Translations under genes and position numbers: made by a program
Shown here: positions 7,844-26,980 of the stretch, piece after piece
Layout of the letters: the number at the start of each line of letters is the position of its first letter
Numbering within the stretch: position 1 is the first letter of the stretch
NCBI GenBank assembly: GCA_963931305.1
Contig: OZ006994.1
Location: forward strand, 282,955-346,954
DNA from: an uncultured Bacilli bacterium
GTDB taxonomy: Bacteria; Bacillota_I; Bacilli_A; RF39; UBA660
Length of the DNA: 64,000 nt
Direction: 5' to 3'
Notes under the pieces: model-generated
Database searches by the model: none
What the model saw: the letters and a program-made list of their open reading frames with translations, nothing else
Told to the model about the DNA's origin: nothing

Positions 7844-7863
7844 AATAAAAGGGTGGTGATCTG

Positions 7864-11390: not shown

Positions 11391-11499
11391 ATAATATGTA
11401 CAAAAAGGAAGCGTACTCATTTGAGAGACTGCTTCCTTTTCAAAGATATAAGAAACATACTATTACCTACTATGTAGATGTAGATATTTCTTTCATTAA

Positions 11500-11562
11500 C
11501 TATAATCAATTATAACACACTTTCGACTAACTTACACACTTTTTGACTAGGTGTGTGTTTTA
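11500..11562 (+). promoter_or_regulatory. Operator-like repeats upstream of the XRE regulator gene: ACACACTTTCGACTAA … ACACACTTTTTGACTAGGTGTGTGT
   Basis: Direct repeat of ACACACTTT(c/tt)GACTA. The second copy forms a palindrome ACACAC-n-GTGTGT. A TATAAT-like element follows. Confidence 0.35.
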
Positions 11563-11605
11563 TACTATCACTTATATAATTTTTATATAAGGTGGTGGTA
11601 CTACT

Positions 11606-11896
11606 TTGACTTTAAGAAAAGATATAAAAGATATTTTCAAACAAAATTTGAGATACTATCGTTTAAAAAATAAACTAACTCAAGAAGATTTAGCTGTAAA
11701 GTCTGATTTAACTGATAAATATATATCTGATTTAGAAAGAGGAATATTCTCACCAAGTTTAGAAAAATTAGATATGTTAGCAGAAGCTCTTAATATTGAT
11801 ACATATTTATTATTAAAAGATGACCACTCTGAAGAGAAACTACCTAATAGATTAGATATAATTACAAAAACAAGAAAATCGAAAAGAAAGTATTAA
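11606..11896 (+). CDS. XRE-family helix-turn-helix transcriptional regulator
   Basis: …LTQEDLAVKSDLTDKYISDLERG… HTH_3 pattern. RBS AAGGTGGTGG. First gene inside the element. Confidence 0.7.
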   Translation: MTLRKDIKDIFKQNLRYYRLKNKLTQEDLAVKSDLTDKYISDLERGIFSPSLEKLDMLAEALNIDTYLLLKDDHSEEKLPNRLDIITKTRKSKRKY

Positions 11897-12115
11897 CATT
11901 ATCACAATATCATAAAACTTAATATACCTTTGATAATGAGAGTAACATTTTATTAAAAAGTGTTACTTTCTTTCTTTTATTACCCATTTAAAACGTGGTT
12001 AATGTTTTATTAAAGTAATATAAATTATTAACTTTAAAGAAAAAGTGTCCCAAAATGAACGTGAGATACTTTAGAATTGATGTTTTAATAATACTTATAC
12101 TAGTGGTTACTTTAA

Positions 12116-12877
12116 ATGTTAAAACTAATTATAATAGACCCTATATTTCAAGGTAAGGTTGATAGTATGACTATATTTAGAACAGTTAAAGATAATAATT
12201 ATACAGTAATCAGTAATACATATTTAAAAGATGAGAATTTAAGTTTTGGTGCTATTGGACTAATGACAGTATTATTATCTTGTAAAGATGATACAAAGTT
12301 TAGTGTCAGTTTAATCAGTAAAATAAGTCATAAGAGTAATAAAGTGATAACAAAGTATCTTAATGAATTAAAAAGAAACAAGTATATCTATGTAAAAAAG
12401 AAAAACACAAGAGATGGTTTTAAGTATGAGTATTCAATATATGAGTGTAAGGACTTTAACCCTTATTTTCTTAATATTAGCCCAGATACCCAAAACCCAA
12501 CATGGGAAAGCCCACCTATGGAGACGGGTAATACTATAATAAATACTATTAATAAACAAGATAAAATAGATAAAACAAAATTGAACTTGTGTTTTTTAAC
12601 TGAAAGTATTATTGACTCTGACTTTATTAAAGAAAATGATATTAATTTATTAAGTTATAACAACTTTCTATCTAAACTATTAGAAGAAAATAATAATCGA
12701 CTAGTTATTCAAGTTGTAAGGTATGTTGTAAAGAGAATTAAAGATAATGATTATTTAGATGAGAAGTCTAATCCTATTGAAAATCTACTTACTTATTTTA
12801 AGTCATCAGTTATTAATAATTTAGAGTCTATGAAAGTTCGAGCTGATGACTCTCTCTTTGATGACTGGGAAGAATAA
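12116..12877 (+). CDS. Replication initiator / phage replisome-organiser-like winged-helix protein. True start possibly the ATG at 12167.
   Basis: N-terminal wHTH-like segment (…FGAIGLMTVLLS…SLISKISHKSNKVITKYLNELKRNKYIY…) resembling the RepA_N / phage_rep_org_N class. Weak memory-based call. Confidence 0.35.
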   Translation: MLKLIIIDPIFQGKVDSMTIFRTVKDNNYTVISNTYLKDENLSFGAIGLMTVLLSCKDDTKFSVSLISKISHKSNKVITKYLNELKRNKYIYVKKKNTRDGFKYEYSIYECKDFNPYFLNISPDTQNPTWESPPMETGNTIINTINKQDKIDKTKLNLCFLTESIIDSDFIKENDINLLSYNNFLSKLLEENNNRLVIQVVRYVVKRIKDNDYLDEKSNPIENLLTYFKSSVINNLESMKVRADDSLFDDWEE

Positions 12878-13245
12878 CCTCTACTGATAGTAATAATTAA
12901 GAAGAACTTGATAATAAATATAGAATATTTATATATCAATTTTCTTTTTAAGTTACTATCATCTCTTTGTATTTTGGAGTATCGCAGATTAACGAAAGAT
13001 TAAAACTAATAAAATTATATAAGGAATAGTAAAACTAATCCCAGAAGTACTCCAAAATAAACGTAGGATGACTTATGGTAATAGTCTTACTTTACCAATG
13101 ATAAAAGAAAGTGTATTTAATCAACCTCACTAATGGAATTAGAGTTTTTAAATATTATTAGAATAATAATATTTAAGAAAAATTGGTAGTTTACAAACTA
13201 TAAAAACTTGATAATATAACCACTAATAAGAAAGGTGGTGTATTT

Positions 13246-13497
13246 ATGAACGATAAGTCAAATATAATCTTACGAATAGAAAAATTATCTAAACTATCAA
13301 ATGAATTAAAAGATACTGAAGTTTGTAAGGTTATAAAGAAGATATTAGACTTAATTAATGATATTTATATTTTAATTCCACAAAAAAGAATTAATAGGTG
13401 TAAATATTGTAGCGAACTCACAGATAGTCAAGACCCAAATATACTATGTCCTAATTGTATAGAAACATTCGGACATAGTTTTTTTAGTGAATTATAG
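13246..13497 (+). CDS. Small zinc-ribbon protein (CKYC…CPNC)
   Basis: Two CxxC pairs. RBS AAAGGTGGTG. Confidence 0.4.
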   Translation: MNDKSNIILRIEKLSKLSNELKDTEVCKVIKKILDLINDIYILIPQKRINRCKYCSELTDSQDPNILCPNCIETFGHSFFSEL

Positions 13498-13512
13498 AAA
13501 GGAAAATTAAAT

Positions 13513-13800
13513 ATGTTAAATCAAATAATATTTGTAGGAATACTAAAAGAAATGATTATTAAAGATGATTATTACATTATAAAATTAGAAGTACCAAGAC
13601 GTATAAAAGAAAATGATACTAAACGTAGTGATATTATTACTTTAAAAAAATATGGAATTAATCAACTTATGGAAGAACAAATGGAAATAGACGGTATTGT
13701 TGGTGTTAAAGGACATATTGAAACAGATGATAATGAAATAATGACAAACGTAATAGACAAACTTACATTTCTATCATCAAAGAAAAGGAGTAATAAATAA
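13513..13800 (+). CDS. Small OB-fold, SSB-like protein (tentative)
   Basis: Resembles an SSB OB fold: N-terminal IIFVGILKE, a KLEVPRR segment, a GIVGVKGHIE hairpin. Low confidence. Confidence 0.3.
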   Translation: MLNQIIFVGILKEMIIKDDYYIIKLEVPRRIKENDTKRSDIITLKKYGINQLMEEQMEIDGIVGVKGHIETDDNEIMTNVIDKLTFLSSKKRSNK

Positions 13801-14480
13801 TGGGTGTACTTGATATACATTATAAATACGACTATAAAGGTCGCTTACTTTATATGTTGTTACTAAACTATTATAGAAAGTATTACTCTGACAATAAATT
13901 TAATGGTAAAGTAGTTGTCGCTTGTTCTACTACATCAAGACTTATGAAAGACTATGATATTTTTTATAATACTATCAATTTATTAACAGTTAGTGATATT
14001 ATTAAATTAAATAACTTTACTTACTTCTATGATAAACAACTAAAATTACTCTTTAAAAGGTTAAGAGAAAAAAACGTTAGTTATGATAAATTAATCAAAG
14101 GAATTAAAGAAGAATATACTAAAGATAAATCTTTATATTATGATGACCTCTGTGATAACCACCACAACTTACCTAGTGATAAAAATGTTATATTTGTTGA
14201 AGTAAATAATTTAGTTCAAATATATAGTAAATACTTAATTAGAGATATATTTATTCCAGAGAAACAATATGTATCACAACTAGAGAGACAACATGGTGGT
14301 TTATACTTTGTTTTAAGTGAATATGTAGAAGAATTTATTAAGATGATTAATATATTAAAAGCTCACATTAATATACAAGATGATTTTCTTAAATTAAATC
14401 TATTTATTGATACTGATAAAGGTATAGATATAATTGACAAAGTTAACAGTAGAACAAGAGATGAAGAAGATGAGGAATAA
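13800..14480 (+). CDS. Hypothetical protein (226 aa) with acidic C-terminal tail
   Basis: ATGA-type overlap with the upstream gene. No motif recognised. Confidence 0.45.
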   Translation: MGVLDIHYKYDYKGRLLYMLLLNYYRKYYSDNKFNGKVVVACSTTSRLMKDYDIFYNTINLLTVSDIIKLNNFTYFYDKQLKLLFKRLREKNVSYDKLIKGIKEEYTKDKSLYYDDLCDNHHNLPSDKNVIFVEVNNLVQIYSKYLIRDIFIPEKQYVSQLERQHGGLYFVLSEYVEEFIKMINILKAHINIQDDFLKLNLFIDTDKGIDIIDKVNSRTRDEEDEE

Positions 14481-14481
14481 T

Positions 14482-14898
14482 ATGTTCGCAGATGAATTAA
14501 TTAATAAATTTTTAGATAGTGAAACTTATAAAGAATATGACAAGATTTACAAAGATAAAAACTATGTTGACCCACAACTATTAAAACAATTATTACTAGA
14601 ACACCACGACTTATATGAATTATTTTTAAAAGCGAATATCATTTTATATAAGTATGAGACCAAAGGATTAAAGAAAAGTTTTAACGACTGTTATTATCAT
14701 AATGAAAAGAGATTATTTTTAGAAGATGTATATAATGTTTTACTATATTACTACTCTCACTACTCTAGGTGTCAGACTGTTTTAAAAAAGATGATACAAT
14801 TAAAACTTGTACCAATGAGTGAAAGAAAAATATTAAAACTTATTCTTAATAGAGATATAAGTAAAGAGCTTATTCCACTTAACTTGACACAACTATAA
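14482..14898 (+). CDS. Hypothetical protein (138 aa). Start moved to the ATG at 14482, which has a GAGGAA RBS.
   Basis: The track ORF start at 14434 lies inside the upstream gene. The ATG just after that gene's stop has a good RBS. Confidence 0.4.
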   Translation: MFADELINKFLDSETYKEYDKIYKDKNYVDPQLLKQLLLEHHDLYELFLKANIILYKYETKGLKKSFNDCYYHNEKRLFLEDVYNVLLYYYSHYSRCQTVLKKMIQLKLVPMSERKILKLILNRDISKELIPLNLTQL

Positions 14899-14989
14899 TA
14901 TTAACAGTTTGAGAAAATGAAATTTTATGCTATACTATTGATAGAGTAAAGTAGAAGTCATACAGTTGGTAAATTGTGAGAGGTGTAGT

Positions 14990-16081
14990 ATGGAAAATGT
15001 AATAATGATAGTCCTAATAACAGTAATTTTAATAGGAACATCAATATTTCTTGAAAAGATTTTTAACAAACCAAGAGAAAAGTATAATTGGGATAAGCCA
15101 CCAAAGTTTTACTTTTATATCAGTATGTTTATACCTATTGTTGGTTTTATTATGTGGTGTGTATTTGTTAATCATAAACCTAATTCGGCAAAGTCAGCCG
15201 GAAGTGGTGCATTATGTAATATACTTTTATCAATTATAATTGTATTAAGTGCTTGGTTAATTAATTATTCTGTTTCGTTCGTAAACAATAATATTTTAGT
15301 TGAAGAATATACCAATACATACAATATTCATTTAAATACAGAAATGTCTGATAATTTAGATAAATATGATTTTGAAATGACAGTTACTTATACTGGAAAT
15401 AAAGAATATTTAGATAGATTTAAAGAAATGTATGAAGATGAAATATTCCCAAATAATCAATTAAATATAGATTTTGATGACATAGAAGAAACAAATAACA
15501 ACACCTATGATTTAATTCCATATATTGAAAATTATATTGATGAATTTTTTAATAACTATATAACTATGTATAAAAGTGCAGACGCTTATTCATCATTAGA
15601 ATATATAAAATATAAAATTAAAGAAAAAGAAATCATTGTTAAAGAATTAGTATTAGATGATGAAGAAATTTTGTTAAATTATGCAGTAGATAGTTTTAAC
15701 GATTATAATGGAGTAAAATTAAAAGTCGGAGATAAAGTGGATGTTTATTTTATAGATGAAGAAAATAAAGTGTTTTTTAAAATTATAAATAATAGTACAC
15801 TATTGAGTATTAAAAATGCTAGTGGAGAAAACATAACTAGTGGAATACCATCTATGTTTATCTTAACTGTAAAAGACAGTTACATAATAGATTTCATAAA
15901 TGCTTTCACATATAATTCATCAAGTAATAGATTTAGAACAGTTATTATTAAGCATGGCTCTACATTTTCATTAAATAATTATGAAGAATTAGAAAGTATT
16001 GATGATTATAATGATATGAGATTAAATAGTAATGAAGTTCCAACTGAAACTTTCGGTATAATTGGAGAGGTGCAAGAATGA
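14990..16081 (+). CDS. Membrane protein (363 aa): N-terminal 3 TM carrying the conserved FIPIVGFIMWC-VN-KP--AK-AG module, plus a soluble C-terminal domain
   Basis: Start moved to ATG 14990, which has a GAGAGGTG RBS. The module is shared with the C-terminus of the next gene. Confidence 0.5.
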   Translation: MENVIMIVLITVILIGTSIFLEKIFNKPREKYNWDKPPKFYFYISMFIPIVGFIMWCVFVNHKPNSAKSAGSGALCNILLSIIIVLSAWLINYSVSFVNNNILVEEYTNTYNIHLNTEMSDNLDKYDFEMTVTYTGNKEYLDRFKEMYEDEIFPNNQLNIDFDDIEETNNNTYDLIPYIENYIDEFFNNYITMYKSADAYSSLEYIKYKIKEKEIIVKELVLDDEEILLNYAVDSFNDYNGVKLKVGDKVDVYFIDEENKVFFKIINNSTLLSIKNASGENITSGIPSMFILTVKDSYIIDFINAFTYNSSSNRFRTVIIKHGSTFSLNNYEELESIDDYNDMRLNSNEVPTETFGIIGEVQE

Positions 16082-16569
16082 GTGATGCTTTATTTGAAGA
16101 AATAAATGATTTTAATGAAATAATTGTCAAACAAGACTTTATTAAAATAACAAAAAGTAATGATACTAAAGTTTATTATTTTAGTAAAATAGATTATAGC
16201 AGAAGCTTTAAAACAAATCTTAATGGCGACTATGTTGAAGTTAATATTTATGTTGATAATCAAGATGTCCTATTCATGATAAGAAAAGAAAATTTCTTGA
16301 AATTTAAAGAGATAATTACACCAATAAAAAGAGGTTATGAAAATACAGACTTTACTATTAATGAACAACATGAGTTATATAACCCAAGAGAAGATGACAA
16401 CCCTTCTCCTATTTATGTTATTGTTGGCTTCTTTATTCCAATATGTGGTTTTATTATGTGGTGTATATTAGTTAATACAAAACCAAAAACAGCTAAAATG
16501 GCTGGAATAGCTGGTATAATTGGTTTTATCATTAATTTTATAATATTTATTTATATCTTAACGAATTAA
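16078..16569 (+). CDS. Membrane protein (163 aa): soluble N-terminal domain plus a C-terminal paralogous FIPICGFIMWCILVNTKPKTAKMAG TM module
   Basis: ATGA overlap with the upstream gene. The ~45-aa module is duplicated in the two adjacent genes. Confidence 0.5.
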   Translation: MSDALFEEINDFNEIIVKQDFIKITKSNDTKVYYFSKIDYSRSFKTNLNGDYVEVNIYVDNQDVLFMIRKENFLKFKEIITPIKRGYENTDFTINEQHELYNPREDDNPSPIYVIVGFFIPICGFIMWCILVNTKPKTAKMAGIAGIIGFIINFIIFIYILTN

Positions 16570-16584
16570 AAGGAGTTAATAGTA

Positions 16585-17511
16585 ATGGAAGTATTAAAAA
16601 CTAAACGAGGAGTAATAATTATTATAGGCTTTATTATTGCAGTTATATGTCTTACCATAGGTATGATTTTGTTATTTAATCAAGATAACATAGTGGAAGA
16701 AGTAAAAGAACAAAATAATAATATTAAAGATGAAATTAAAGATGAAGATGATAAAAAAACAGAAGTTGATGATAATAATTCACAGAAAAACAATACAGAA
16801 GATAATAATAATAATAACTTAAACACAGATGAACAACAACAAACCCAAGAAGATAATAAAACTAATAATAATGATAATAATAGTAGCACTAGTACTAATA
16901 ACAATAGTAATAATTCTAGTAATACTCAAAAAACGACTACTAAAAATATAAATGTTGATGAGACTATTAGTTATAGTACTCAAGAGGTACAAGAAGTTAA
17001 TTTGCCAAGAGGTCAAAGACAGACTTCACAAGTAGGTAAAAATGGTATTAAAAGAATTACTTATAAAGTTACTTATAATTCAAATGGTACAGAAATATCA
17101 AGAACTAAAGTGTCAGAAAGTGTTATATCACAACCTATAAATCAAATAATAAAAATTGGAGTTAGCGATTTTAACTTAAATACATCAAAGTTAGAAAATG
17201 AAGTGTATAGTATGGATGCCTGTACTTCAAATCAGTTAGTAAATAATGGTGGTTATTACTGTACTGAAAGTAAAAAATTTAGTGGTATTTTTATAAATGG
17301 TACACTATATATAACTGGGATTTATAATCAAACTAGTATTAGTAACATAAGACCATTAATAGCTTTAAAGCCATCACTTTCTGGTGATATATACAATGGA
17401 AATTATAACGGAGCAAATTATTATTTCTTGATATCAAGCGGTAATTATGTTAATAGAGCTTTAACTCAAAGCGACTGTGATAAATATGGTTTGGCTTGTG
17501 GTAGATGGTAA
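16585..17511 (+). CDS. Membrane-anchored G5-domain protein with an N/D/T/Q-rich low-complexity linker and a Cys-containing C-terminal domain
   Basis: RBS AAGGAG. N-terminal TM. The G5 domain is the segment NVDETISYSTQEVQEVNLPRGQRQTSQVGKNGIKRITYKVTYNSNGTEISR…IKIGV. Four or more Cys in the C-terminal ~100 aa. Confidence 0.5.
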   Translation: MEVLKTKRGVIIIIGFIIAVICLTIGMILLFNQDNIVEEVKEQNNNIKDEIKDEDDKKTEVDDNNSQKNNTEDNNNNNLNTDEQQQTQEDNKTNNNDNNSSTSTNNNSNNSSNTQKTTTKNINVDETISYSTQEVQEVNLPRGQRQTSQVGKNGIKRITYKVTYNSNGTEISRTKVSESVISQPINQIIKIGVSDFNLNTSKLENEVYSMDACTSNQLVNNGGYYCTESKKFSGIFINGTLYITGIYNQTSISNIRPLIALKPSLSGDIYNGNYNGANYYFLISSGNYVNRALTQSDCDKYGLACGRW

Positions 17512-17556
17512 GGTACTAATATAGTACCTTTTCTTAATACATATAAAGAAAGAGAG

Positions 17557-18006
17557 ATGATAAAATATATGGAGACATTAAAAAACAAGAATTTAATTTT
17601 AGTAAATGGAAAAGCTGGAAGTGGTAAATCTACTTTTTTAGTAGATATATCTAATTCTATAAAAGACAAAACAATGTGTTTCATAGATTTAGAAGGTTCT
17701 ACTATTAGTAGATTAAAATTAAGTGATAACATAGATGTATATCTCAAACGTATAGATGACTTCTCAATAATAGATAAAATAGTTAATGATTATGATATTA
17801 TTATAATAGATTATCTTCAATTACTATCACGTTCATTAAATAAAAAATCCACTACCTTACTCGAGCAATTAAAAGAGTTAGCTGTTAATTTAAATAAAGT
17901 TATTATAGTAAGTTATTGTGAAAGTTCATATACTATTGATAAAAGTATAGATAAATGTAAAGAATATGCAGATTTAATTATAACTATAGAAAAGGCTGAA
18001 CAATGA
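17557..18006 (+). CDS. Mini RecA-fold ATPase resembling the DnaB helicase C-terminal domain (149 aa)
   Basis: Walker A NGKAGSGKSTF. IIIIDYLQLL matches the DnaB (V/I)IDYLQL(M/I) motif. Too short to be a full helicase. Confidence 0.45.
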   Translation: MIKYMETLKNKNLILVNGKAGSGKSTFLVDISNSIKDKTMCFIDLEGSTISRLKLSDNIDVYLKRIDDFSIIDKIVNDYDIIIIDYLQLLSRSLNKKSTTLLEQLKELAVNLNKVIIVSYCESSYTIDKSIDKCKEYADLIITIEKAEQ

Positions 18007-18224
18007 ACTATATAGAATTATATTGTAAAACAGTAATACAACCATTAGAGAAGATGAGAAATCAAATTTTAGATAAATATTACTCATCCATTTTCTTTAA
18101 GTCAAAATATAAATTACTATTAGATAAAATTGATGAAGAGTTAATGAATAAGTACAATAAGTTTAATGATATGATAGAAGAAGAAACAAAATTTCAAGAA
18201 TTATTAAAAGACAGTGTTAAGTAG
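18003..18224 (+). CDS. Small hypothetical protein (73 aa)
   Basis: ATGA overlap with the upstream ATPase gene. Confidence 0.35.
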   Translation: MNYIELYCKTVIQPLEKMRNQILDKYYSSIFFKSKYKLLLDKIDEELMNKYNKFNDMIEEETKFQELLKDSVK

Positions 18225-18311
18225 CACTGTTTTATTTTTACACTCTTTTTATATATGATAATGAACGACTTTTTATCAAAGTACATAAAAGTTAACGAAA
18301 GGACTGATACT

Positions 18312-18596
18312 ATGGTTACAGAACTAATACGATTAAAAGATGTGGCTAACAGACTTAATTTATCAACAGCGACACTTCGTAAGTATATACATAATGGAAA
18401 GCTAAAGGCTATAAAAGTTGGTGGTAATTATATGGTTAATACTAATGATTATGATGAGTTTGTCTTTAACTTATATGTTGAAAGTTTAGGATTAAATCCA
18501 ACTAAAGTAAAAGAATATTTAGAAAACGAAGCAAAGGAAGAATTAGAGCAAGAGTTAAATAAACTGATGAAACAAGTTGGTCTAATAAAAGATTAA
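18312..18596 (+). CDS. xis: Excisionase-family (MerR-like) HTH DNA-binding protein, candidate Xis
   Basis: LIRLKDVANRLNLSTATLRKYIHNGKLKAIKVGGNYMV is an excisionase-family HTH signature. Sits immediately upstream of the tyrosine integrase. Start moved to ATG 18312. Confidence 0.55.
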   Translation: MVTELIRLKDVANRLNLSTATLRKYIHNGKLKAIKVGGNYMVNTNDYDEFVFNLYVESLGLNPTKVKEYLENEAKEELEQELNKLMKQVGLIKD

Positions 18597-18652
18597 TTGT
18601 ACTTTGTTAAAACTCTGTATTAAAATATTAATTATTTAGAAATGAGGTAATT

Positions 18653-19615
18653 ATGAGTAATATTATTAGCATTGATAGTAAAGAGTTAATTAATATCAAT
18701 TCAAATCAAGATATAATAGACAAATGGTTAAAGTTTGCCGACGTTAGTAATAACACTAAACAAGCATATAAAAAAGGAGTTTATACTTTTATAGAGTTTA
18801 TTACTAATAAAAATATAAACACTATTACTAGAGAAATAGTATTAGATTTTAAAAATGAAATTATGTCTAAAAATTCTAATGCAACAGCTTATAACTATTT
18901 AAGTGGGTTAAAAAGTTTTTACAAATTTTTAGACTATGAAAATATTACACAAGATATAACTAGAAATATAAAATTACCAAAAATACCAAAAGGACATAAA
19001 AAAGACTCTCTAACTATTGAACAATTAAGGAGTCTTTTATCGTCTTTATCTAATGATACATTACTAAACTCAAGAGATTATTGTATTATTAATCTCATGA
19101 TAAGAACAGGTTTGCGTTCATGTGAAGTATTAGAAGCCAATGTTGGTGATATACAAACAAAAGATGGAAAGAAAATCTTATACATTAAAGGAAAAGGTCA
19201 TACTGAAAAAGATGATTTTGTCGTATTAGAATATGATATGCTTAACATAATTGATAATTACTTAAATAAAAGAAAAAATGTAATTGATAAATCTCCTCTA
19301 TTTATTAGTCTTAACCATAACACTTATGGCGAAAGATTAAAACCTTCTAGTTTTAGAAAAATAATTAAAAACAGGTTAAGGGATGCTGGTATAGATAGTC
19401 CTAGAATATCAGCACACTCTTTAAGACATACAGCAGTAACTTTTTCATTATTAGGTGGAGCCTCTATTCAAGAAGCAAAAGACATGGCTAGACATACAGA
19501 CGTAAATACAACATTAAATTATGCTCATAATCTTACAAGATTAAATGAAAGTCCAGAGTCTAAAATCGAACACTTCTTAAGAGAAAATATAACGCCAAAT
19601 GACTTTAAAAATTAA
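18653..19615 (+). CDS. int: Tyrosine recombinase / phage-type integrase
   Basis: N-terminal SAM-like domain. Catalytic-domain motifs …LMIRTGLRSCEVLEANVGD…, HSLRHTAVTFSLLGG, and …NYAH… with the Tyr nearby. RBS GAGGT. Confidence 0.8.
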   Translation: MSNIISIDSKELININSNQDIIDKWLKFADVSNNTKQAYKKGVYTFIEFITNKNINTITREIVLDFKNEIMSKNSNATAYNYLSGLKSFYKFLDYENITQDITRNIKLPKIPKGHKKDSLTIEQLRSLLSSLSNDTLLNSRDYCIINLMIRTGLRSCEVLEANVGDIQTKDGKKILYIKGKGHTEKDDFVVLEYDMLNIIDNYLNKRKNVIDKSPLFISLNHNTYGERLKPSSFRKIIKNRLRDAGIDSPRISAHSLRHTAVTFSLLGGASIQEAKDMARHTDVNTTLNYAHNLTRLNESPESKIEHFLRENITPNDFKN

Positions 19616-19618
19616 TGT

Positions 19619-19650
19619 TTGGTATCTATAATTATTATTACAGATACCAA
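19619..19650. repeat. Perfect 9-bp inverted repeat TTGGTATCT-n13-AGATACCAA immediately 3' of int, between convergent genes
   Basis: Seen directly. Not followed by a T-run in either orientation, so it is not a canonical terminator. Candidate att/arm-type or end-of-module site. Confidence 0.4.
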
Positions 19651-19656
19651 AAAAGA

Positions 19657-20757
19657 TTAAATAAGTTTATACTTTTTACAAAGTTCAAATAACATTTTTT
19701 CATCTTTTTTAGATGAGTCTTTGAAATGTGTTTTTACAGCAGTTGTTTCATCAACTAGTTGGTTTAATTCTTTATTATTTAATTTACGTAATCGACCAAC
19801 TAAATCTCTACAATTATCATTCAAAGTCTTACGTTTAAGTCTTTCATTAAAATTAGGGTCCTCGTCAAAACAACTTTCACAAAGATTTTTAATAGTGCTT
19901 GATGTAGGTTGTAAACATCTACAACAAATCTTAAAGCTGTCAGAATTCCAGTAAATACAATTTAGAAAATAATAAGTTAAAGACTGAACTAGATTATTTG
20001 TTTCAATATAACCACCGTTAGTATTAGATATAATTGGTGTAGCATAATTTTTATAAGCAGATATATATAGACTAAATTCTTCCTTTAGACTTTCAACATA
20101 ATAATTAAATTCATCTATGTATTTCTTTTTATCTTGAATAGTATCAAAACCCATGAGTTTATTTAATTTCTTTTTGTTTAAATCATCTAAATCAGTATCT
20201 AAAATTTTCTTTAACTCTGTTAATAAATAAACTGTAATAGAAGTAAAAATTAAGTCTTTTACCCTAACACATAATGGTAAATCAGTTTGATTACCCTCTT
20301 CAATAGTATCTTTTTCTAAATTTTCAAAATATGGAAGACCATTTTGTTTACAGAAATTTATAATAACATTAGTAATATTTTTATCTTGGAATAAACTATC
20401 ATAGTCATTAATAAAAATAACATGATTTGTATTAGGTTCAAGGTCTTCATGTAAATCAAATTCATTCTTATATATTACATCATTTCTATTTTTACCATTA
20501 AAAGACACTGGCATTATTCTAATTTTTTCTCTTTTCTTTATAAAGATACGACTAAAGTATTTTATATTTTCAATATTTAAATATAAAGTTTTCCCAAAAT
20601 CAATAAATTCTTTATACAAATTTTCTAAACTTTCACTCTCTGTTAAAAAAACGTCTTTACCAGTAGCTTCTATCACATAGTAATTAAATAGCTTTTTAAC
20701 ACTATAATTTTCAAATCTATATAATGTTCTTTTTAATTTAAGTCCCATTTTTATCAA
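19657..20757 (-). CDS. Hypothetical protein (366 aa) with C-terminal Cys-rich (CCRC…CESC) zinc-binding-like region
   Basis: The only minus-strand gene in the element. Convergent with int and divergent from the downstream block. Confidence 0.45.
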   Translation of the reverse strand: MIKMGLKLKRTLYRFENYSVKKLFNYYVIEATGKDVFLTESESLENLYKEFIDFGKTLYLNIENIKYFSRIFIKKREKIRIMPVSFNGKNRNDVIYKNEFDLHEDLEPNTNHVIFINDYDSLFQDKNITNVIINFCKQNGLPYFENLEKDTIEEGNQTDLPLCVRVKDLIFTSITVYLLTELKKILDTDLDDLNKKKLNKLMGFDTIQDKKKYIDEFNYYVESLKEEFSLYISAYKNYATPIISNTNGGYIETNNLVQSLTYYFLNCIYWNSDSFKICCRCLQPTSSTIKNLCESCFDEDPNFNERLKRKTLNDNCRDLVGRLRKLNNKELNQLVDETTAVKTHFKDSSKKDEKMLFELCKKYKLI

Positions 20758-20959
20758 TTCTCCTTTACAAAATATTAATTTTCATTCCCACTTTTTTCCG
20801 ACCCATAGACATTGAAGTTAAGATGAGATAAGTTGTTGTTGTCGCGACAAAAATGTGTGCTTTATTATAACACACATTAGAAAATTAACAAGACTTGAAG
20901 ACTTGTTATAAAAATTAAAGAAGTGGTAATCCACAAAAAAAAAGAAAGGAAAAAATATT

Positions 20960-21454
20960 ATGCATGAAAATATTGAAGAGACGTTAAACTGGACGTCTGA
21001 AAATAATCCAGTTAATAATGGAATAAACCTCGAAGAGGAATTCCAAAAAAGCAGTGAAAAGGAAGCTACTGCTTTACAAAAAAAGTTCCTAAATGCCTGT
21101 GGCGATATTAGTGAGGAATTTAAACCTGCCACATTTAAGGAATGTCAATTCAAAATTGGCACCAAAAATGGTACGCCATATCTAACGATGGTGTACCAAT
21201 ACAAAAATGTTGACAAGATTATTGAAGATAATTTTTATCTCTCCAATAATGCTTATCAACACAATTTAGAACGTTTAGATAGCGTTCTACACATTATGGG
21301 AGGAAAACTAGAGTTAACCAATACGGTTAACGAAAATGTACTAAAAGATTACATAAATAAATTTAAAGGAGCTGAAGTCTTAATAAGCCAGTTCCGAAAC
21401 AAAGATGGGCATAAACTATGTAATGTAGCAAGCCTACCAAAGGAGGTGGAATAA
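20960..21454 (+). CDS. Hypothetical protein (164 aa)
   Basis: RBS GAAAGGAAAA. No motif recognised. Confidence 0.4.
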   Translation: MHENIEETLNWTSENNPVNNGINLEEEFQKSSEKEATALQKKFLNACGDISEEFKPATFKECQFKIGTKNGTPYLTMVYQYKNVDKIIEDNFYLSNNAYQHNLERLDSVLHIMGGKLELTNTVNENVLKDYINKFKGAEVLISQFRNKDGHKLCNVASLPKEVE

Positions 21455-21455
21455 T

Positions 21456-21956
21456 ATGGCTATCTATAATGGCAAGCATAAAGAAAGCTCTATTGAGGAA
21501 GCACGAGTTTCTTTCATAGAGCTTCAAAATGCTGCTAAACAAAGTCAAAGAAAGCCTAAATTTGTTCCTATAACAAATCAATGGTATGACGGAGTTTTAA
21601 GTGAAATAGTACTAACAAAATCCGTTACTAAAGGTTATCCATGTATTGCGATAACTTTTAGCATACCAAGAGAGAGAAAGCCTGAAGATAAAGAAACGAA
21701 ATATGATAAGATTATCATTAATCATATTCTTTCTAATTTAGCAGGGCCTAAATCTTTAAGAGAGATAAAACGACTATTGTCTATTTTAGGAGTTTCAAAC
21801 CAAGAATTAAATACTATCAGTAATATAGAAACTGAATATAAATTTGTTGAGTATCTTCAAAAATTTGTAGGAACACCTATACGTATTAAATCAACATCAG
21901 ATAGTAGTACCAAATCATACGATATTGAAAGACGAGACGTAAATAATGGAAAATAA
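21456..21956 (+). CDS. Hypothetical protein (166 aa)
   Basis: Tightly packed with its neighbours. No motif recognised. Confidence 0.4.
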   Translation: MAIYNGKHKESSIEEARVSFIELQNAAKQSQRKPKFVPITNQWYDGVLSEIVLTKSVTKGYPCIAITFSIPRERKPEDKETKYDKIIINHILSNLAGPKSLREIKRLLSILGVSNQELNTISNIETEYKFVEYLQKFVGTPIRIKSTSDSSTKSYDIERRDVNNGK

Positions 21957-23829
21957 TTTAAAATATGTCGTATTACAAAAAAGGTCAAAAAAGCCAACCG
22001 CCAATTCTAACGGTGGTTGGCTATTAACTGAAGACCCAACAGCTTATGATGATGTTGGTTTGTATTTAAATAACATAAAAGATGTTGTAGTAGTTGATTT
22101 TGATTCTCTAAAAGAAAATAATGAGTATGAAGATAAAATTATTAGAGTAATACAAAAGAAATATCCAAGCAGTCTTGTTGTAAAAACAGATAAAGGGTAT
22201 CACTTGTATTATAAAACAAAGAGAAAAATTAAAAATCAAACAAAAACTATGGTTTGTTTAGGTATAAAAGTAGACTTTAAAGTTGGAAATTCATACACTG
22301 TTATTAAAAGAAACGGCAAGTTTAGACAATATAATGGAGATTTTGACTTCACAAAGTTAAACGAATTACCAGATATTTTATTACCTCTTCCTACTAAAGA
22401 AGCAAAAATACAAGCTGGAATAACCGAAGGGGCTAGAAATGATAGTTTGTTTAAGCATTTATGTAGAATAAGAAAATTTTATGATGATGTTAATTTATCT
22501 GAAATAGCCCACTTTATAAACCAATATTTATATAATCCACCAATGGAAACACAAGAAGTTGAAGGTATAGTTGCTTCATCTTTAAAACAAAATATTGAAA
22601 CATTTGAAGATGATAAATCAGCTAAGTTTTATGAAGCGATAGAAAATGTAATAGAAGAATATAAAGTTCATCTAGCTAATAACAACCTATATTTTCTATA
22701 TAATGGACATTATGAAAATGATGACTTTAAACTTCTAAAACTAGTTTATAATTATTGTAGTTTTTCTATATCCAATAGTGAAAACGTTATATTTCAATTA
22801 AAAATGAAAGCTACACCATGGGACGAGAAAAACATAATCGCTATCAAAAATGGCATTATAGAAAATGGCGTGTATAAAAATATAAGTGATGTCTTTACAC
22901 CTTTTTATATTGATGTTACATACGACCCTAATGCCTACTCTAAAGTACTTGATGATTTTATACAATTCATTACTAATAATCAAGATAGTAAAGAAAAAAA
23001 TGATTTAAGAATTGTTTTAGAAGAAATGTTCGGTCATTGTCTAATGTTTGATGACTTTCCACATAAAATATTTTTACTTGTTGGAAAAGGAAATAACGGT
23101 AAAAGTGTCTTACTTAACTTTATATGTAATTTCTTTCAAAATATGTACTCAAGTGTACCTATTAACTATATAGATAAAGATAATTATGTCGCTAGGATAG
23201 TTAATAAATTAGTTAATATCTCTGATGATGTAGATTATAACTATTTAGTAAGTAGTCAAAATATTAAAAAAATCGCTTCAGGAGACCACGTATCAGCAAG
23301 AGAGTTATACGGTAAAAGTTTCGACTTTAAAAGTACTTGTACTCAAATATACTCTATGAACGAACTAATAAAGTTCAAAGATAAATCTTATGGTATGGAA
23401 AGGCGTCTTTGTATTATTCCATTTAAAAATGAAGTAAAAGATGTTGACCCACATATGTTAAAGAAATTACTTAATGATGAAGCTAAATCTTACTTTCTAA
23501 ACCTAGCTTTAGAAGGAATAAAAAGAATAAAAGAAAATAACTGTCAATTAAGTAAATCTACAATAATAGAAAAAACTATAAAAAGATATATCAATGAAAG
23601 TGATACTGTCGAAATGTTCTTTAATTATGGCGATGTAGGTGATATAAACGAACGTCAATTTTCAATAATATACGAAGCATATAAAAGTTTCTGTATTGAT
23701 AATGAGTATATTCCATGTACAAAAAATGGTTTCAGTAGAAGACTACATAAAAAGGGTTACACTAGTGTACCAAGAAAAATTGATAATAAATCTGTGAGAA
23801 TGATTATAAGGGAAGATAAAGATGAATGA
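21946..23829 (+). CDS. Bifunctional Prim-Pol primase with PriCT-1 and a P4/D5-type SF3 helicase domain (replicative primase-helicase)
   Basis: N-terminal Prim-Pol features (VVDFD, GYHLYY). PriCT_1-like EGARNDSLFKHLCRI. C-terminal Walker A LLVGKGNNGKSVL and Walker B-like ISDDVDY of the phage/plasmid primase P4 family. Confidence 0.7.
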   Translation: MENNLKYVVLQKRSKKPTANSNGGWLLTEDPTAYDDVGLYLNNIKDVVVVDFDSLKENNEYEDKIIRVIQKKYPSSLVVKTDKGYHLYYKTKRKIKNQTKTMVCLGIKVDFKVGNSYTVIKRNGKFRQYNGDFDFTKLNELPDILLPLPTKEAKIQAGITEGARNDSLFKHLCRIRKFYDDVNLSEIAHFINQYLYNPPMETQEVEGIVASSLKQNIETFEDDKSAKFYEAIENVIEEYKVHLANNNLYFLYNGHYENDDFKLLKLVYNYCSFSISNSENVIFQLKMKATPWDEKNIIAIKNGIIENGVYKNISDVFTPFYIDVTYDPNAYSKVLDDFIQFITNNQDSKEKNDLRIVLEEMFGHCLMFDDFPHKIFLLVGKGNNGKSVLLNFICNFFQNMYSSVPINYIDKDNYVARIVNKLVNISDDVDYNYLVSSQNIKKIASGDHVSARELYGKSFDFKSTCTQIYSMNELIKFKDKSYGMERRLCIIPFKNEVKDVDPHMLKKLLNDEAKSYFLNLALEGIKRIKENNCQLSKSTIIEKTIKRYINESDTVEMFFNYGDVGDINERQFSIIYEAYKSFCIDNEYIPCTKNGFSRRLHKKGYTSVPRKIDNKSVRMIIREDKDE

Positions 23830-24322
23830 GTTTTACAATAAAAAGTTTTTTGACCTATTAGAAGAAATAAAAAGAGATTATCAATTAGTATATGCTAAAC
23901 AACTACTGGACTTACAAGAACGCATGCAAGAAGCTGGTCCTATAAAAGATAGACGCCTTGAACTGTTATATAAATTTCCAGTAGAAAGAGAAATAATAAA
24001 AGAAATTATAATGGAAAGATTACGAAGAGCTCAAGGCGAGCTAATTTTACCCGAAGATGAACTCACAGAAGAACAAAAAGTTTTAAGTGAAAAAAGAAGT
24101 CTAATAAAAAGTTATATGGTTGAAAATTTAATACCAGATATTTTGTTTGATGAGTTTTATGAAAATTATTTAAAAAAGTATGAGGGAGTTGAAGAAAAAT
24201 ACTTAATGTCTAAAAGCGAAGTAAAAAAAGAATTACAAAGTGTAGGGTTTGGGGTAAAAGTAGAATATGACTTAAACGACGAGCCTAAAAAATATATAGT
24301 ATTTAGGTTTTATAATTGGTAG
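23822..24322 (+). CDS. Hypothetical protein (166 aa)
   Basis: ATGA overlap with the primase gene. Confidence 0.4.
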   Translation: MNEFYNKKFFDLLEEIKRDYQLVYAKQLLDLQERMQEAGPIKDRRLELLYKFPVEREIIKEIIMERLRRAQGELILPEDELTEEQKVLSEKRSLIKSYMVENLIPDILFDEFYENYLKKYEGVEEKYLMSKSEVKKELQSVGFGVKVEYDLNDEPKKYIVFRFYNW

Positions 24323-24852
24323 TAACGTAGTATTAATGCGAGAAACCTTTACAAAGCTATTCAAAATTAAATACGTAATAAAAATATTGAACAGCTAAGT
24401 TATAAAACGCGTAACTTACAGTTTACGAAGTCATCAATGCTATATATAATATACCCTAAATTTAACGATTTAAAGCTAATATAAGGCGAAGTCGGTTTAT
24501 AAGTATATCAATACCTACAACTAGTAAAAAACGCTACCATAAGCTCTGTGGCACGTTCTATAAAATATAGGAACGAAAATGATATTAACTCTTTCACTTT
24601 AAAATAGAGTTAAGAAAGCACTTGATGTTAAAAACGTACAAATTCAAGGTAAATGGTACTGGACTTTAGGAAACGAAATAAATAACCAAGCCCTAAATGA
24701 AATACTTATAATCTAACAAACTAATATGTACTTTACTTAAAAATTGTTTTATTATATACCCCATAAAAAAGAATAGGAAAATATTTTGTCATAAATAAAT
24801 AATGATATTTTCCTATCTTTCTTAATAAAGTTTTACTAGGAGGAATTGATTT

Positions 24853-25026
24853 ATGGAAAATAATGTTAAAAGTATCATAGATAAAATAAGTAAATTCAAA
24901 TTACAACTTATCATCAATAAAAATCTTTTTTCTAGTAATGTTATTAGTAGTAGTATCTATGAACAGATGGAGTCATCACTATTAGAAAAAATAGAAACAT
25001 TAAATAAGGAATTATCACTTATTTAA
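24853..25026 (+). CDS. Small coiled-coil protein (57 aa, MENNVKSIIDKISKFKLQ…), translationally coupled (TAATG) to the serine recombinase. Candidate recombination directionality factor.
   Basis: RBS AGGAGG 7 nt upstream. The stop overlaps the recombinase ATG. Under 60 aa, so absent from the ORF track. Confidence 0.4.
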   Translation: MENNVKSIIDKISKFKLQLIINKNLFSSNVISSSIYEQMESSLLEKIETLNKELSLI

Positions 25027-26681
25027 TGCTAACATTATTTGAAATCAGAAATGCCCTAGCTGATGGTATATCTATATTTGATTTACATTTAAAAGTTACT
25101 TATTATGCTAGGGTATCTACTGATAAATACGACCAGTTAAACTCTTTGGAAAATCAAATAACCTACTACGAACATTTTATTAGAGAAAATACAAATTGGA
25201 CTTTTGTTGATGGTTATGTTGATGAGGGAATTACTGGTACTTCAACAGCTAAACGTGATGATTTTAAACGTATGATTAGAGACGCTAAAAATAAAAAATT
25301 TAATTTAATTATAACTAAAGAAATATCAAGGTTCGCAAGAGATACTTTAGATAGTATAAAGTATACAAGAAAACTATTAGAGTATGGTGTTGGTGTTTTA
25401 TTCCAATACGACCATATAAACACTTTTAATCCTGACTCTGAATTGAGATTAACTATTATGGCTTCTATCGCACAAGAGGAAGTTAGAAAACTATCTGAAA
25501 GAGTAAAGTTTGGTTTCCAAAGGTCTATTGAAAAAGGAAATGTTTTAGGTAACAATGCTATATGGGGTTATAAAAAAGATAATTGTAAGTTAGTTATTGT
25601 AGAGGAAGAAGCAGAAATTATTAGAAGAATATTTGATATGTATGTTAATGAACATATTGGTATGCGAACTATCGGACATAAATTAGCTGATTTAGGTTAT
25701 TACAATAGTAATGGAAAACCTTTCACTCAAAATACAATTAAAAATATTCTTACTAATCCTAAATATAAAGGTTATTACTGTGGAAATAAGACAAGAGTTA
25801 TTGACTATCACTCTAAACAAAGAGTAAATATTGAAAAAGATGACTGGAAGCTTTACGAAGATAATGAGAGTGTTCCACCTATTGTAAGTGCTTCTATATG
25901 GGAAAAAGCCCAAAAGATTATTGAAGCTAGAAGTAAAAAGCTATCTAAAGATAAAACAGTATATCAAAATAGGTACCCGTTTAGTGGAAAAATTTATTGT
26001 ATGGAGCATAATACGACATATAGAAGAAAAGTAAATACAAGTAGTGGTATAAAAAAGAAAAAGGTAGTTACTTGGAGATGTAGCGAGTTTTTAAAACATA
26101 ATACTAAAGGTTGTGATGGTCCTATTCTTTATGATAATGAATTAAGAGAAATTGTTGGTAAAACAATATTAAGTTACGTGTCTAATATTAATGTCATTGA
26201 TGATTTAATGAAAGAGTACAAAGAACTTCAAAGTAATATGGATTTTAAAGATGAGATAGAAGTAAAACAGAAGAAAATAGAAATGTTAGAAAAGAAGAAA
26301 AGTAAAATACTTGACCTAATTCTAAAAGACTTAATTAATGAAGATGATTTTAAACTACAAGTAGAGAAAATAGTTAACGAAATTCATAAACTTGAAGATG
26401 AAATAACTATTTTAGAAGAAAAAAGTAATCATTTATTAGAAGATGAGAGATATTTAGAAAGTGTCAAGAAAAAAGCGAAAGAACTACTTGAGTATGAGAA
26501 AGCCGATATTGATAGTTTGATTTATGAATTTTTAGAGAAGATAGAAGTCTATAAGATGAAAGACAAAGATTTTATAAAGTTAAGAATTATACTTAATACT
26601 GGAGATAATTACAGTATTTCTTTTAAAAATAAAACGCATCCTTCTTGTTCGTATTATACATATGATTCGTGTCGATGTTGA
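25026..26681 (+). CDS. Large serine recombinase: resolvase catalytic domain, recombinase domain, zinc ribbon, coiled coil. SpoIVCA/CisA-like.
   Basis: YYARVSTDKYDQLNSLENQ carries the catalytic Ser. Resolvase motifs …DEGITGTS…R… follow. Cys cluster CMEHN…WRCSEF…CDG. C-terminal coiled coil. The 3' end reads across the spoIVA junction. Confidence 0.85.
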   Translation: MLTLFEIRNALADGISIFDLHLKVTYYARVSTDKYDQLNSLENQITYYEHFIRENTNWTFVDGYVDEGITGTSTAKRDDFKRMIRDAKNKKFNLIITKEISRFARDTLDSIKYTRKLLEYGVGVLFQYDHINTFNPDSELRLTIMASIAQEEVRKLSERVKFGFQRSIEKGNVLGNNAIWGYKKDNCKLVIVEEEAEIIRRIFDMYVNEHIGMRTIGHKLADLGYYNSNGKPFTQNTIKNILTNPKYKGYYCGNKTRVIDYHSKQRVNIEKDDWKLYEDNESVPPIVSASIWEKAQKIIEARSKKLSKDKTVYQNRYPFSGKIYCMEHNTTYRRKVNTSSGIKKKKVVTWRCSEFLKHNTKGCDGPILYDNELREIVGKTILSYVSNINVIDDLMKEYKELQSNMDFKDEIEVKQKKIEMLEKKKSKILDLILKDLINEDDFKLQVEKIVNEIHKLEDEITILEEKSNHLLEDERYLESVKKKAKELLEYEKADIDSLIYEFLEKIEVYKMKDKDFIKLRIILNTGDNYSISFKNKTHPSCSYYTYDSCRC

Positions 26682-26937
26682 ATCTACCTTTGAACCAATT
26701 ATCGGATCAGAATTACAAAGTAAAGAATTAATTCAATATCTTATGAAAGATCATGATAATGACCCAGCAAGTATTTGGAAAAGTGAAATATTTGGACGTA
26801 GTTTAGATGTTATTGTCAAAGAAGGAATTCAAGCTAAAATCTCACTATTGCCTGATAATGTACGCTTTAAATTACAAACAACACTCTCTAAATTAGTCAA
26901 TAAAGGTTCTGGTAATTTATTTGCTATTGTACTTTAG
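26662..26937 (+). CDS. spoIVA: Stage IV sporulation protein A, 3' segment (codons 401-491)
   Basis: MIRVDVESTFEPIIGSELQSKELIQYLM…SLDVIVKEGIQAKISLLPDNVRFKL…GSGNLFAIVL matches the SpoIVA C-terminus …MIKVDVESEFAPIIG…REGIQAKLSLMPENARYKL…GSGGLIAIIL. Confidence 0.9.
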   Translation: MIRVDVESTFEPIIGSELQSKELIQYLMKDHDNDPASIWKSEIFGRSLDVIVKEGIQAKISLLPDNVRFKLQTTLSKLVNKGSGNLFAIVL

Positions 26938-26951
26938 AATAAAACAATAAA

Positions 26952-26980
26952 AAATCACCATACTAAAAGTGGTGATTTTT
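26952..26980 (+). terminator. Rho-independent terminator after the spoIVA 3' segment
   Basis: AAATCACCA-tactaaaag-TGGTGATTT hairpin followed by a T-run. Confidence 0.55.

Follow-up and report, generated by a model that had tools for sequence, protein, structure and literature searches.

What kind of element splits the sporulation gene spoIVA of an uncultured Bacilli bacterium (RF39; UBA660), and why does it carry two site-specific recombinases of different families? In our study, we analyzed 64,000 nucleotides of contig OZ006994.1 (positions 282,955 to 346,954), hereafter called the window, in which a 15-kb insert from nucleotide 11391 to 26661 sits within spoIVA. The gene encodes a universally conserved spore-coat morphogenetic ATPase. 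We consider it probable that the insert is one modular integrative replicon, made up of an excision cassette specific for spoIVA, a replicative backbone and an internal Xer-like recombinase with its own site. An earlier note on this DNA had described the insert as composite and had left two readings: a tyrosine-integrase element nested in an older serine-recombinase element, or a satellite that captured a sporulation-coupled excision module. Related loci of other genomes and metagenome assemblies are referred to by L numbers; the family was found in low-GC, gut-type Firmicutes.

Limits of the element and the spoIVA excision cassette

The ends of the element contained the following features.

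10191–11389, plus strand: 5' part of spoIVA, up to the crossover CA at 11388–89; matches TIGR02836 (spore_IV_A) positions 1–401 of 492, E 3e-178; in-frame join
11390–11478, no strand: left arm of the excision cassette, on the element side of attL; 85% DNA identity to L004 over 11306–11478 and divergent beyond; attP symmetry about CA
24780–25026, plus strand: promoter region and 57-amino-acid gene (24853–25026), a candidate recombination directionality factor; homology to L004 begins at 24780
25026–26681, plus strand: large serine recombinase specific for spoIVA; Resolvase, Recombinase and Zn_ribbon_recom domains; phrog_95, 1.7e-118; the 3' end overlaps attR, with the crossover CA at 26659–60
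26662–26937, plus strand: 3' part of spoIVA; SpoIVA_C match; in-frame join

Joining the two flanks at the dinucleotide CA (11388–89 with 26659–60) gave an uninterrupted SpoIVA protein of 491 amino acids (...SIHMIRVDV...). Three common dinucleotides were in frame and could serve as the crossover; around CA the attP was symmetric at 20 of 26 positions, as against 9 and 4 of 26 for the other two. The limits of the earlier note, 11391–26661, were therefore correct within 1–2 nucleotides, as judged by the CA join and the attP symmetry. The element is thus built like skin at its ends: a sporulation gene is split, exact excision would restore one open reading frame (ORF), and a large serine recombinase lies at the edge with an attP that is symmetric around the central dinucleotide. 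An imperfect inverted repeat, ATATGTACAAAAAGGAAGC at 11394–11412 and GCTTCCTTTTCAAAGATAT at 11431–11449, was observed just inside attL and was kept in the mini-element L004. Its possible roles are that of a segment of the arm bound by the recombinase, or of a terminator at which transcription of the truncated spoIVA would end.

The excision cassette comprised about 2 kb, namely about 90 bp of the left end and 24780–26661 with the promoter region, the 57-amino-acid gene and the large serine recombinase. All homologues of the recombinase at 70–98% identity adjoined a SpoIVA_C fragment. The 57-amino-acid gene had homologues of 57–59 amino acids (57–100% identical) directly upstream of the recombinase in L004, L006, L104, L212, and L213; in L007 an unrelated gene of 47 amino acids occupied the slot before its recombinase. 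In L004 and L005, with recombinases 95% identical to that of the window, the spoIVA gene of another organism was split by a mini-element of about 2.7 kb that contained just a Fic gene, the 57-amino-acid gene and the recombinase. The DNA homology between the window and L004 was limited to 11306–11478 and 24780–26949. In L212 the recombinase was 98% identical, homology started at 24571, and the neighboring module was a different one, with an AAA_25 helicase gene. The spoIVA cassette, 92–94% identical at the DNA level, was thus found on unrelated cargo in other genomes. The elements of L006, L104, and L213 (recombinase 70–76% identical) ended with a 59-amino-acid gene and a recombinase abutting SpoIVA_C, and they shared many backbone genes with the window: Rep, the genes of 83, 95, 226, and 154 amino acids, XRE, the 73-amino-acid gene, the ATPase, the HTH_17 gene and the primase.

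Two side observations concern these sister elements. L213 contained a reverse transcriptase of group II intron type (7345–8592; RVT_1, with a faint GIIM match) between its small resolvase and its excision cassette. L104 contained two SpoIVA_C fragments (11658–11933 and 14173–14448), each 78% identical to that of the window, which followed one spoIVA element and were separated by 2.2 kb; they suggest that a second insertion, tandem or relic, has lost its recombinase.

Replicative backbone in related elements

Between the two parts of the cassette lay a replicative backbone of 13.3 kb (11479–24779), with module boundaries near 11479 and 24780. The same backbone was found with other integration modules. 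In L010, a metagenome-assembled genome of the Firmicutes, it was syntenic from XRE through Rep, six ORFs of small or medium size, the ATPase and the Xer-like gene, and on through the 366-amino-acid gene convergent with the latter, to the helicase; identities to the window were 72% for XRE, 50% for Rep, 63% for the Xer-like protein and 53% for the 366-amino-acid protein. Homologues of the 83-, 95-, 226-, 154-, 371-, and 163-amino-acid genes, the ATPase and the primase C-terminus were also present in L010, and its end was formed by a 96-amino-acid gene and a phage-type tyrosine integrase.

L007 and L008, with Xer-like proteins 75% identical to that of the window, carried the same backbone within an element that splits spoVD. 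The terminal serine recombinase was 40% identical to that of the window and the L007 primase 44%. The two spoVD fragments of L007 (358–1260 and 18052–19092) matched TIGR02214 positions 2–294 and 289–633, and spoVD may be a second, unreported target of developmentally excised elements. In L014–L019, L100, and L103 (Xer-like protein 49–60%), the homologue lay in the middle of elements of about 10–16 kb that ended with a phage-type tyrosine integrase. The ends of L014 and L019 were marked by direct repeats of 31 and 20 bp, respectively, which lay on the outer side of the terminal integrase and again past the far end; by their sequence appearance, and not by a tRNA finder, these repeats look tRNA-derived. 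Only for the primase and the serine recombinase were relatives found in the viral contig collection.

The description of the insert as composite was thus borne out, since the spoIVA cassette occurs on unrelated cargo and other terminal integrases are found with the backbone. The second reading of the earlier note, taken as a replicative element with a captured excision module coupled to sporulation, fits these findings.

Internal recombinase and its site

The middle of the backbone contained the second recombinase, the gene upstream of it and a palindromic site.

18255–18596, plus strand: HTH_17/excisionase-family DNA-binding protein; HTH_17 1.2e-8; TIGR01764 1e-8
18653–19615, plus strand: Xer-like tyrosine recombinase, internal and catalytically intact; Phage_integrase 8e-23 and SAM_1
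19621–19648, no strand: dif/lox-like core site of 28 bp, GGTATCTATAA-TTATTA-TTACAGATACC, in a single copy; 11-bp inverted arms and a 6-bp AT-rich center

The tyrosine recombinase showed the two-domain build (SAM_1 followed by Phage_integrase) and the full catalytic set of the Xer type. R155, K181, H255, R258, H281, and Y290 were invariant in 11 homologues (49–78% identical), which speaks against the suggestion that the gene is an inactive relic. Its best NCBIfam matches were XerA, XerD, and XerC, all of them under the cut-off (134.6 bits vs. 220 for XerA and 130 vs. 329.6 for XerD); the protein is therefore Xer-like and is not a member of the curated XerC, XerD, XerS, or XerA equivalogs. The closest annotated relatives were found on small non-mobilizable plasmids of the Firmicutes (34–37% identity, E to 4e-51), the best phage matches had at most 31% identity, and the viral contig collection yielded no relatives of the protein. 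Alignment patterns of the protein were too generic against the GTDB genomes; among the matches listed, identities were at most 38% and most belonged to the Bacteroidota.

As in the window, the Xer homologue was located inside the element in L007, L010, L014–19, L100, and L103. The sister spoIVA elements L006, L104, and L213 contained instead a serine resolvase of 201–239 amino acids in the Xer position, which is a non-orthologous replacement of the Xer-like gene. In L006 and L213 this small resolvase was preceded by a homologue of the HTH_17 gene. The HTH_17 gene is thus a backbone gene and is not specific to the tyrosine recombinase. The replacement by a serine resolvase argues for a resolvase-type role of the Xer-like protein and against a functional xis-int pair: the gene order that the earlier note had read as xis-int is present, and the pairing it implied is doubtful.

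The inverted repeat reported immediately 3' of the recombinase gene, TTTGGTATCT and AGATACCAAA, is real and forms part of a 34-bp near-palindrome at 19618–19651. The site was found once in the 64-kb window, where none is expected by chance and no second copy or half-site was detected, and once per related element. It started 3–45 nucleotides past the Xer stop codon in six independent relatives (L007, L010, L103, L019, and L100 among them), regardless of which gene came next. The central 12-mer TAATTATTATTA was invariant even where the recombinases were 53–55% identical, and the outer arms co-varied on both sides (GGTATC/GATACC, AGTATC/GATACT, ACAC/GTGT). The site thus has the build of a Xer/dif site, with inverted arms and a short spacer (11-6-11), adjoins the recombinase gene and is conserved together with it. 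On neither strand of the window was the palindrome followed by a run of T, so that a plain terminator is unlikely. A 26-nucleotide pattern of the site had no match in the JGI metagenomes and viral contigs.

Other functions of the palindrome were also considered. An invertible switch requires two sites and was rejected for the single site present; an origin hairpin of rolling-circle type was rejected because the element was found to encode neither an HUH nor a Rep_trans protein. In L014, where the Xer-like protein is 49% identical, a different palindrome, AATACCCTCAAA-tgataag-TTTGGGGGTATT, was observed at 9965–9995, just upstream of the recombinase start, with 11 of 12 arm positions paired. It could be the core site of that more distant family, or the terminator of the upstream gene.

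The window element also occurred, as an identical copy, in metagenome assemblies. L002, from a second sample, corresponded to window positions 19724–26928; its assembly ended 76 nucleotides to the right of the core site and also 267 nucleotides past attR, and these breaks may reflect strain heterogeneity. The contig break at 19724 was rejected as a recombination junction, being 76 nucleotides off the site, with the other contig end likewise not at an att site.

Breakpoints and mosaicism

Homology between related elements was found to break at the site. The DNA homology of the window to L007 in this region was confined to 18637–19653, that is, to the Xer-like gene and the site. As far as the last nucleotide of the site, L012 and L010 differed at 1 of 1411 nucleotides; beyond it they had mismatches at +3 and +15 and were unrelated from +23 onward. 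The two sides of the site also differed in their closest relatives: the recombinase grouped the window with L007 (74.7% vs. 63.5% for L010), whereas the 366-amino-acid gene grouped it with L010 (53.2% vs. 36.2% for L007). These homology breakpoints, together with the conflicting similarities to the left and right, would place recombination events at the site. In our best reading, the site of the Xer-like enzyme would serve in multimer resolution of an excised, replicating circle and also as a crossover point for the swapping of modules.

Exchange was also observed away from this site. L008 (5152–8857) and L007 (12313–15942) contained unrelated replication modules in elements that were 98% identical elsewhere, which indicates cassette replacement of the replication genes. 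The L008 module encoded a 600-amino-acid protein and a 428-amino-acid VapE/DUF5906 protein; that of L007 encoded a PriCT/DUF5906 primase of 636 amino acids.

Genes of the backbone

The remaining features of the backbone were as follows.

11511–11562, no strand: operator-like repeats upstream of the XRE gene; direct ACACACTTTCGACTA / ACACACTTTTTGACTA and inverted GTGTGT; ACACAC...GTGTGT and direct ACACACTTT..GACTA
11606–11896, plus strand: XRE-family repressor; HTH_3 1.4e-14; phrog_3 repressor 1e-13; 72% identical to the L010 XRE protein
12116–12877, plus strand: winged helix-turn-helix (wHTH) replication initiator, DnaD-like; phrog_4707 3e-14, phrog_186 1.4e-10; homologues 50–51% identical in L010 and L213
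13246–14898, plus strand: conserved backbone genes of 83, 95, 226, and 154 amino acids; syntenic homologues in L010, L104, L213, and L007
14966–17511, plus strand: variable cargo, two membrane proteins with a common repeated transmembrane segment and a transmembrane protein with a G5 domain (G5 9.7e-17); partial homologues in L010 only
17557–18224, plus strand: mini P-loop ATPase (DnaB_C/AAA_24-like; 17557–18006, DnaB_C 3.4e-8) and a 73-amino-acid backbone protein; homologues in L006, L007, L010, L104, and L213
19657–20757, minus strand: 366-amino-acid protein with a Cys-rich C-terminal part, convergent with the Xer-like gene; no match in Pfam, PHROG, PADLOC, or NCBIfam
20960–24322, plus strand: replication module with ORFs of 164 and 166 amino acids, the primase-helicase (21946–23829) and a further ORF of 166 amino acids; phrog_864 4.5e-100, PriCT_1, DUF5906, TIGR01613 (P4-family primase C-terminus)
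24323–24779, no strand: non-coding stretch of 457 bp between the backbone and the excision cassette; no ORF of at least 50 amino acids, no Rfam match or clear iterons; L212 homology only from 24571

Family scans confirmed the XRE gene, the wHTH initiator, the DnaB_C-like mini-ATPase, the excisionase-like HTH gene and both the tyrosine and the serine recombinase named by the earlier note; the operator repeats upstream of XRE were present as well. The primase-helicase and its PriCT_1 domain also held, with a Prim-Pol N-terminal domain under the Pfam cut-off (E 0.003). The likeness of the 95-amino-acid protein (13513–13800) to single-stranded DNA-binding protein (SSB) was weak and came from a 32% end-to-end match to the syntenic L007 protein that has a Pfam SSB match. 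The relatives of the primase were 33–38% identical and mostly found on viral contigs of 27–42 kb. As had been stated before, the element contained no capsid, tail or terminase gene: neither Pfam nor PHROGs gave a structural, lysis or terminase match, even when ten of the ORFs with no other match were compared with PHROGs at E ≤ 0.5, and in this respect the element has none of the gene remnants of a defective prophage. Family scans detected no relaxase or transfer gene in the element, the Rfam and tRNA scans gave nothing meaningful, and the PADLOC scan matched only the mini-ATPase, through generic similarity of its P-loop, and the G5 protein, weakly and in low-complexity sequence.

The part TTGACTAGGTGTGT of the operator-like repeats was conserved upstream of the L010 XRE gene. 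The segment 11537–11899, with the XRE gene and 69 nucleotides upstream of it, was inverted relative to L010, and the XRE genes of L006 and L007 likewise lay on the opposite strand. The repressor of these relatives is divergent from the Rep operon, whereas that of the window points the same way; no flanking inverted repeats suggesting a switch were seen. The adjacent membrane-protein genes of 371 and 163 amino acids, both with homologues in L010, shared a direct repeat of 76 nucleotides (15128–15203 and 16432–16507, 74% identity), which encodes the same transmembrane motif (...P-I-x-G-F-I-M-W-C...K-P...A-K...A-G) in both proteins. The G5-domain membrane protein was encoded at 16585–17511.

The family of the 366-amino-acid protein was tiny, with 8 representative clusters among 1.84 billion proteins, and its alignment found no relatives in the JGI metagenomes and viral contigs. 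The AlphaFold (AF2) model of this protein had a mean confidence (pLDDT) of 46 and was too poor for use. The non-coding stretch 24323–24779 could hold an origin or a regulatory RNA.

Proposed cycle and alternative explanations

The modular replicon that we favor would work as follows. The serine recombinase and the 57-amino-acid protein would excise the element at CA in the sporulating mother cell and restore spoIVA, by analogy to skin, SP-beta, gin, and yin. Replication of the excised circle would be controlled by XRE and would depend on Rep and the primase-helicase together with the ATPase and the SSB-like protein, and the Xer-like enzyme would resolve multimers of this circle to monomers at its single 28-bp site. 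As a by-product, the same enzyme may recombine related elements residing in one cell at the site and so shuffle their halves; such exchange would explain the different histories of the left and right halves.

Several points weigh against this proposal. The circular form, its replication and recombination at the site are predictions from the sequence, and it is by architecture and analogy that a role as resolvase is argued. The conserved loop and the co-varying arms of the site would fit a hairpin element too, and no similar palindrome was seen beside the plasmid-borne recombinase homologues examined. The 57-amino-acid protein has no recognizable domain, and a sigma-E or sigma-K promoter upstream of its gene could not be assigned by eye, the spacing being inconsistent between the window and L006. 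If excision were confined to the terminal mother cell, replication and multimer resolution would have no purpose there, so that the backbone functions would need another context, such as vegetative induction or transfer; they probably belong to such a cycle.

A phage satellite like the phage-inducible chromosomal islands (PICIs), with an acquired spoIVA excision cassette and a backbone induced and packaged by a helper phage, would share much with the element. The family has a size of 10–16 kb and interchangeable integration modules, and the window element combines an integrase, an XRE repressor and a phage-type primase-helicase (phrog_864, with the relatives on viral contigs given above) with the lack of virion genes. 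We regard this explanation as unlikely: no homologue for small terminase, capsid size or packaging interference was found in Pfam or in PHROG to E ≤ 0.5, although several ORFs are without assignment and a novel type is possible; the lack of backbone relatives among the viral contigs is a weak negative; the gene order differs from that of described PICIs, and the internal Xer/dif-type module points more to a plasmid-like lifestyle. The intact recombinase with its adjoining core site, and the excisionase-family gene just upstream, could also represent a second integration system whose site is an unused attP for another locus, for example a dif-like sequence. This seems quite improbable, because the site was internal and intact in all independent contexts examined while a separate terminal integrase makes the ends, because the window holds neither a second copy nor half a site, and because a small serine resolvase takes the place of the Xer-like gene in the sister elements. 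That the insert is an inert remnant, a decayed skin-like prophage with a relic recombinase and a bidirectional terminator, might be suggested by its many ORFs of no known function, its phage-type primase and the position of the palindrome between convergent genes. We give this very little credence, as all catalytic residues are conserved across the 49–78% identical homologues, the backbone genes are syntenic and intact in many genomes, the 12 central nucleotides of the palindrome are invariant where the flanking proteins are just 53–63% identical, and neither a T-run nor structural-gene remnants were found.

The nested reading placed a Tn916-like or integrative and mobilizable element (IME) of about 11.5–19.65 kb, bounded on the right by xis-int, within an older serine-recombinase element of the skin type. 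The order of the HTH_17 gene and the tyrosine recombinase, the palindrome right behind the latter, and the end of the DNA homology to L007 at 19653 would agree with it, as would a slightly lower GC content to the left of 19.65 kb. The composition of the segments, with GC at third codon positions (GC3), was as follows.

11391–19652: GC 24.5%, GC3 0.164
19653–24779: GC 27.3%, GC3 0.181
24780–26661: GC 26.5%, GC3 0.182
Host genes: GC3 0.160

Composition differed little across the element, and GC3 was near uniform (0.164, 0.181, and 0.182). No direct repeats flanking a sub-element that ends at about 19650 were found in a search of 11000–27200. In L007 and L010, whose ends are made by different terminal integrases, the Xer-like gene and the site have stayed linked to the genes to the left and right of 19650. 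The recombinase was internal, with no recombined att beside it, in the window and in every relative listed above that carries it; the site itself is intact and single and is not a split att. The left boundary would need to coincide with the attL of the serine recombinase, and the actual cassette boundaries lie at about 11479 and 24780, not at 19650. The unit that does occur nearly alone is the serine-recombinase cassette (L004), not the segment of 11.4–19.65 kb. Nesting is therefore hardly credible.

Comparison with known systems and significance

Intervening elements in sporulation genes include skin in sigK (SpoIVCA), SP-beta in spsM (SprA/SprB), vfbin in spoVFB, gin in gerE, and yin in yabG (PMC4191935, PMC5595907, PMC5025042, PMC10747680), and excision in the mother cell that restores the split gene was described for skin, SP-beta, gin, and yin (PMC4191935, PMC5025042, PMC5595907, PMC10747680). 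The window element resembles this type in its large serine recombinase at the edge, the split mother-cell sporulation gene, the exact in-frame join and the small gene directly upstream of the recombinase as a candidate directionality factor, and the mini-element L004 resembles the non-prophage type of gin. It differs from the skin type in its target spoIVA, in a cargo that is a replicative backbone instead of a prophage, in the second, internal recombinase with its own site, and in that the same backbone is also associated with tyrosine integrases at places other than sporulation genes. A limited search of the searchable literature found no earlier description of an interrupted spoIVA or spoVD.

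Single-recombinase systems of the Xer or multimer-resolution kind are XerS/difSL, XerH/difH, Cre/loxP of P1, and ResD/rfsF of F. Like these, the internal module has a recombinase beside one core site with inverted arms of about 11 bp and an AT-rich center of 6 bp, one per replicon; unlike them, it is carried on an integrative element, falls below every Xer equivalog cut-off and has a site unlike the host dif, its activity being predicted. Among the small plasmids with the best annotated relatives is pSMQ-316 of Streptococcus thermophilus (NC_010859.1), a non-integrated replicon on which a tyrosine recombinase and its neighboring HTH gene are likewise found together with a DnaB_C-type helicase and Rep. 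The homology to these plasmid recombinases is distant, and no comparable palindrome was seen beside the plasmid genes. PICIs and other phage satellites share the size, the repressor with a primase/replication module, the lack of virion genes and the site-specific integration; the window element departs from them in having no packaging or capsid-redirecting genes, another gene order and an internal Xer module. With integrative and conjugative elements (ICEs) or IMEs of the Tn916 type it shares an excisionase-family HTH gene followed by a tyrosine recombinase; here the pair is non-terminal and without flanking att, and the HTH gene persists with a serine resolvase. By analogy, the element would work like a skin-type element at its ends and like a plasmid with a Cre/lox- or Xer/dif-type resolution system in its middle.

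As a tentative proposal, which we hold to be possible rather than probable, the integrative replicons described here would belong to a class of gut Firmicutes that has not been described and is distinct from phages, ICEs and known satellites. Each member would be assembled from three cassettes that can be exchanged: one for terminal integration, with either a tyrosine integrase that uses tRNA genes or a serine recombinase directed to spoIVA or spoVD; one for replication; and a self-contained 1-kb cassette of a recombinase, Xer-like or a small serine resolvase, with its site. The third cassette would resolve multimers and drive the site-specific exchange of halves between elements residing in one cell, and the class would have taken up sporulation-gene cassettes repeatedly, which would make spoIVA and spoVD new cases of genes rearranged in development.

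If the modular replicon described here is correct, spoIVA joins the genes that are interrupted by excisable elements, and a relative adds spoVD. The excision cassette is portable, and its cargo can be as different as one Fic gene and a replicon of 13 kb. Both recombinases are candidate orthogonal recombination tools, the serine enzyme in combination with its att sites and the Xer-like one in combination with the 28-bp site. The internal cassette of recombinase and site would mark the exchange of halves and would thereby provide a mechanism for mosaicism in small mobile elements.

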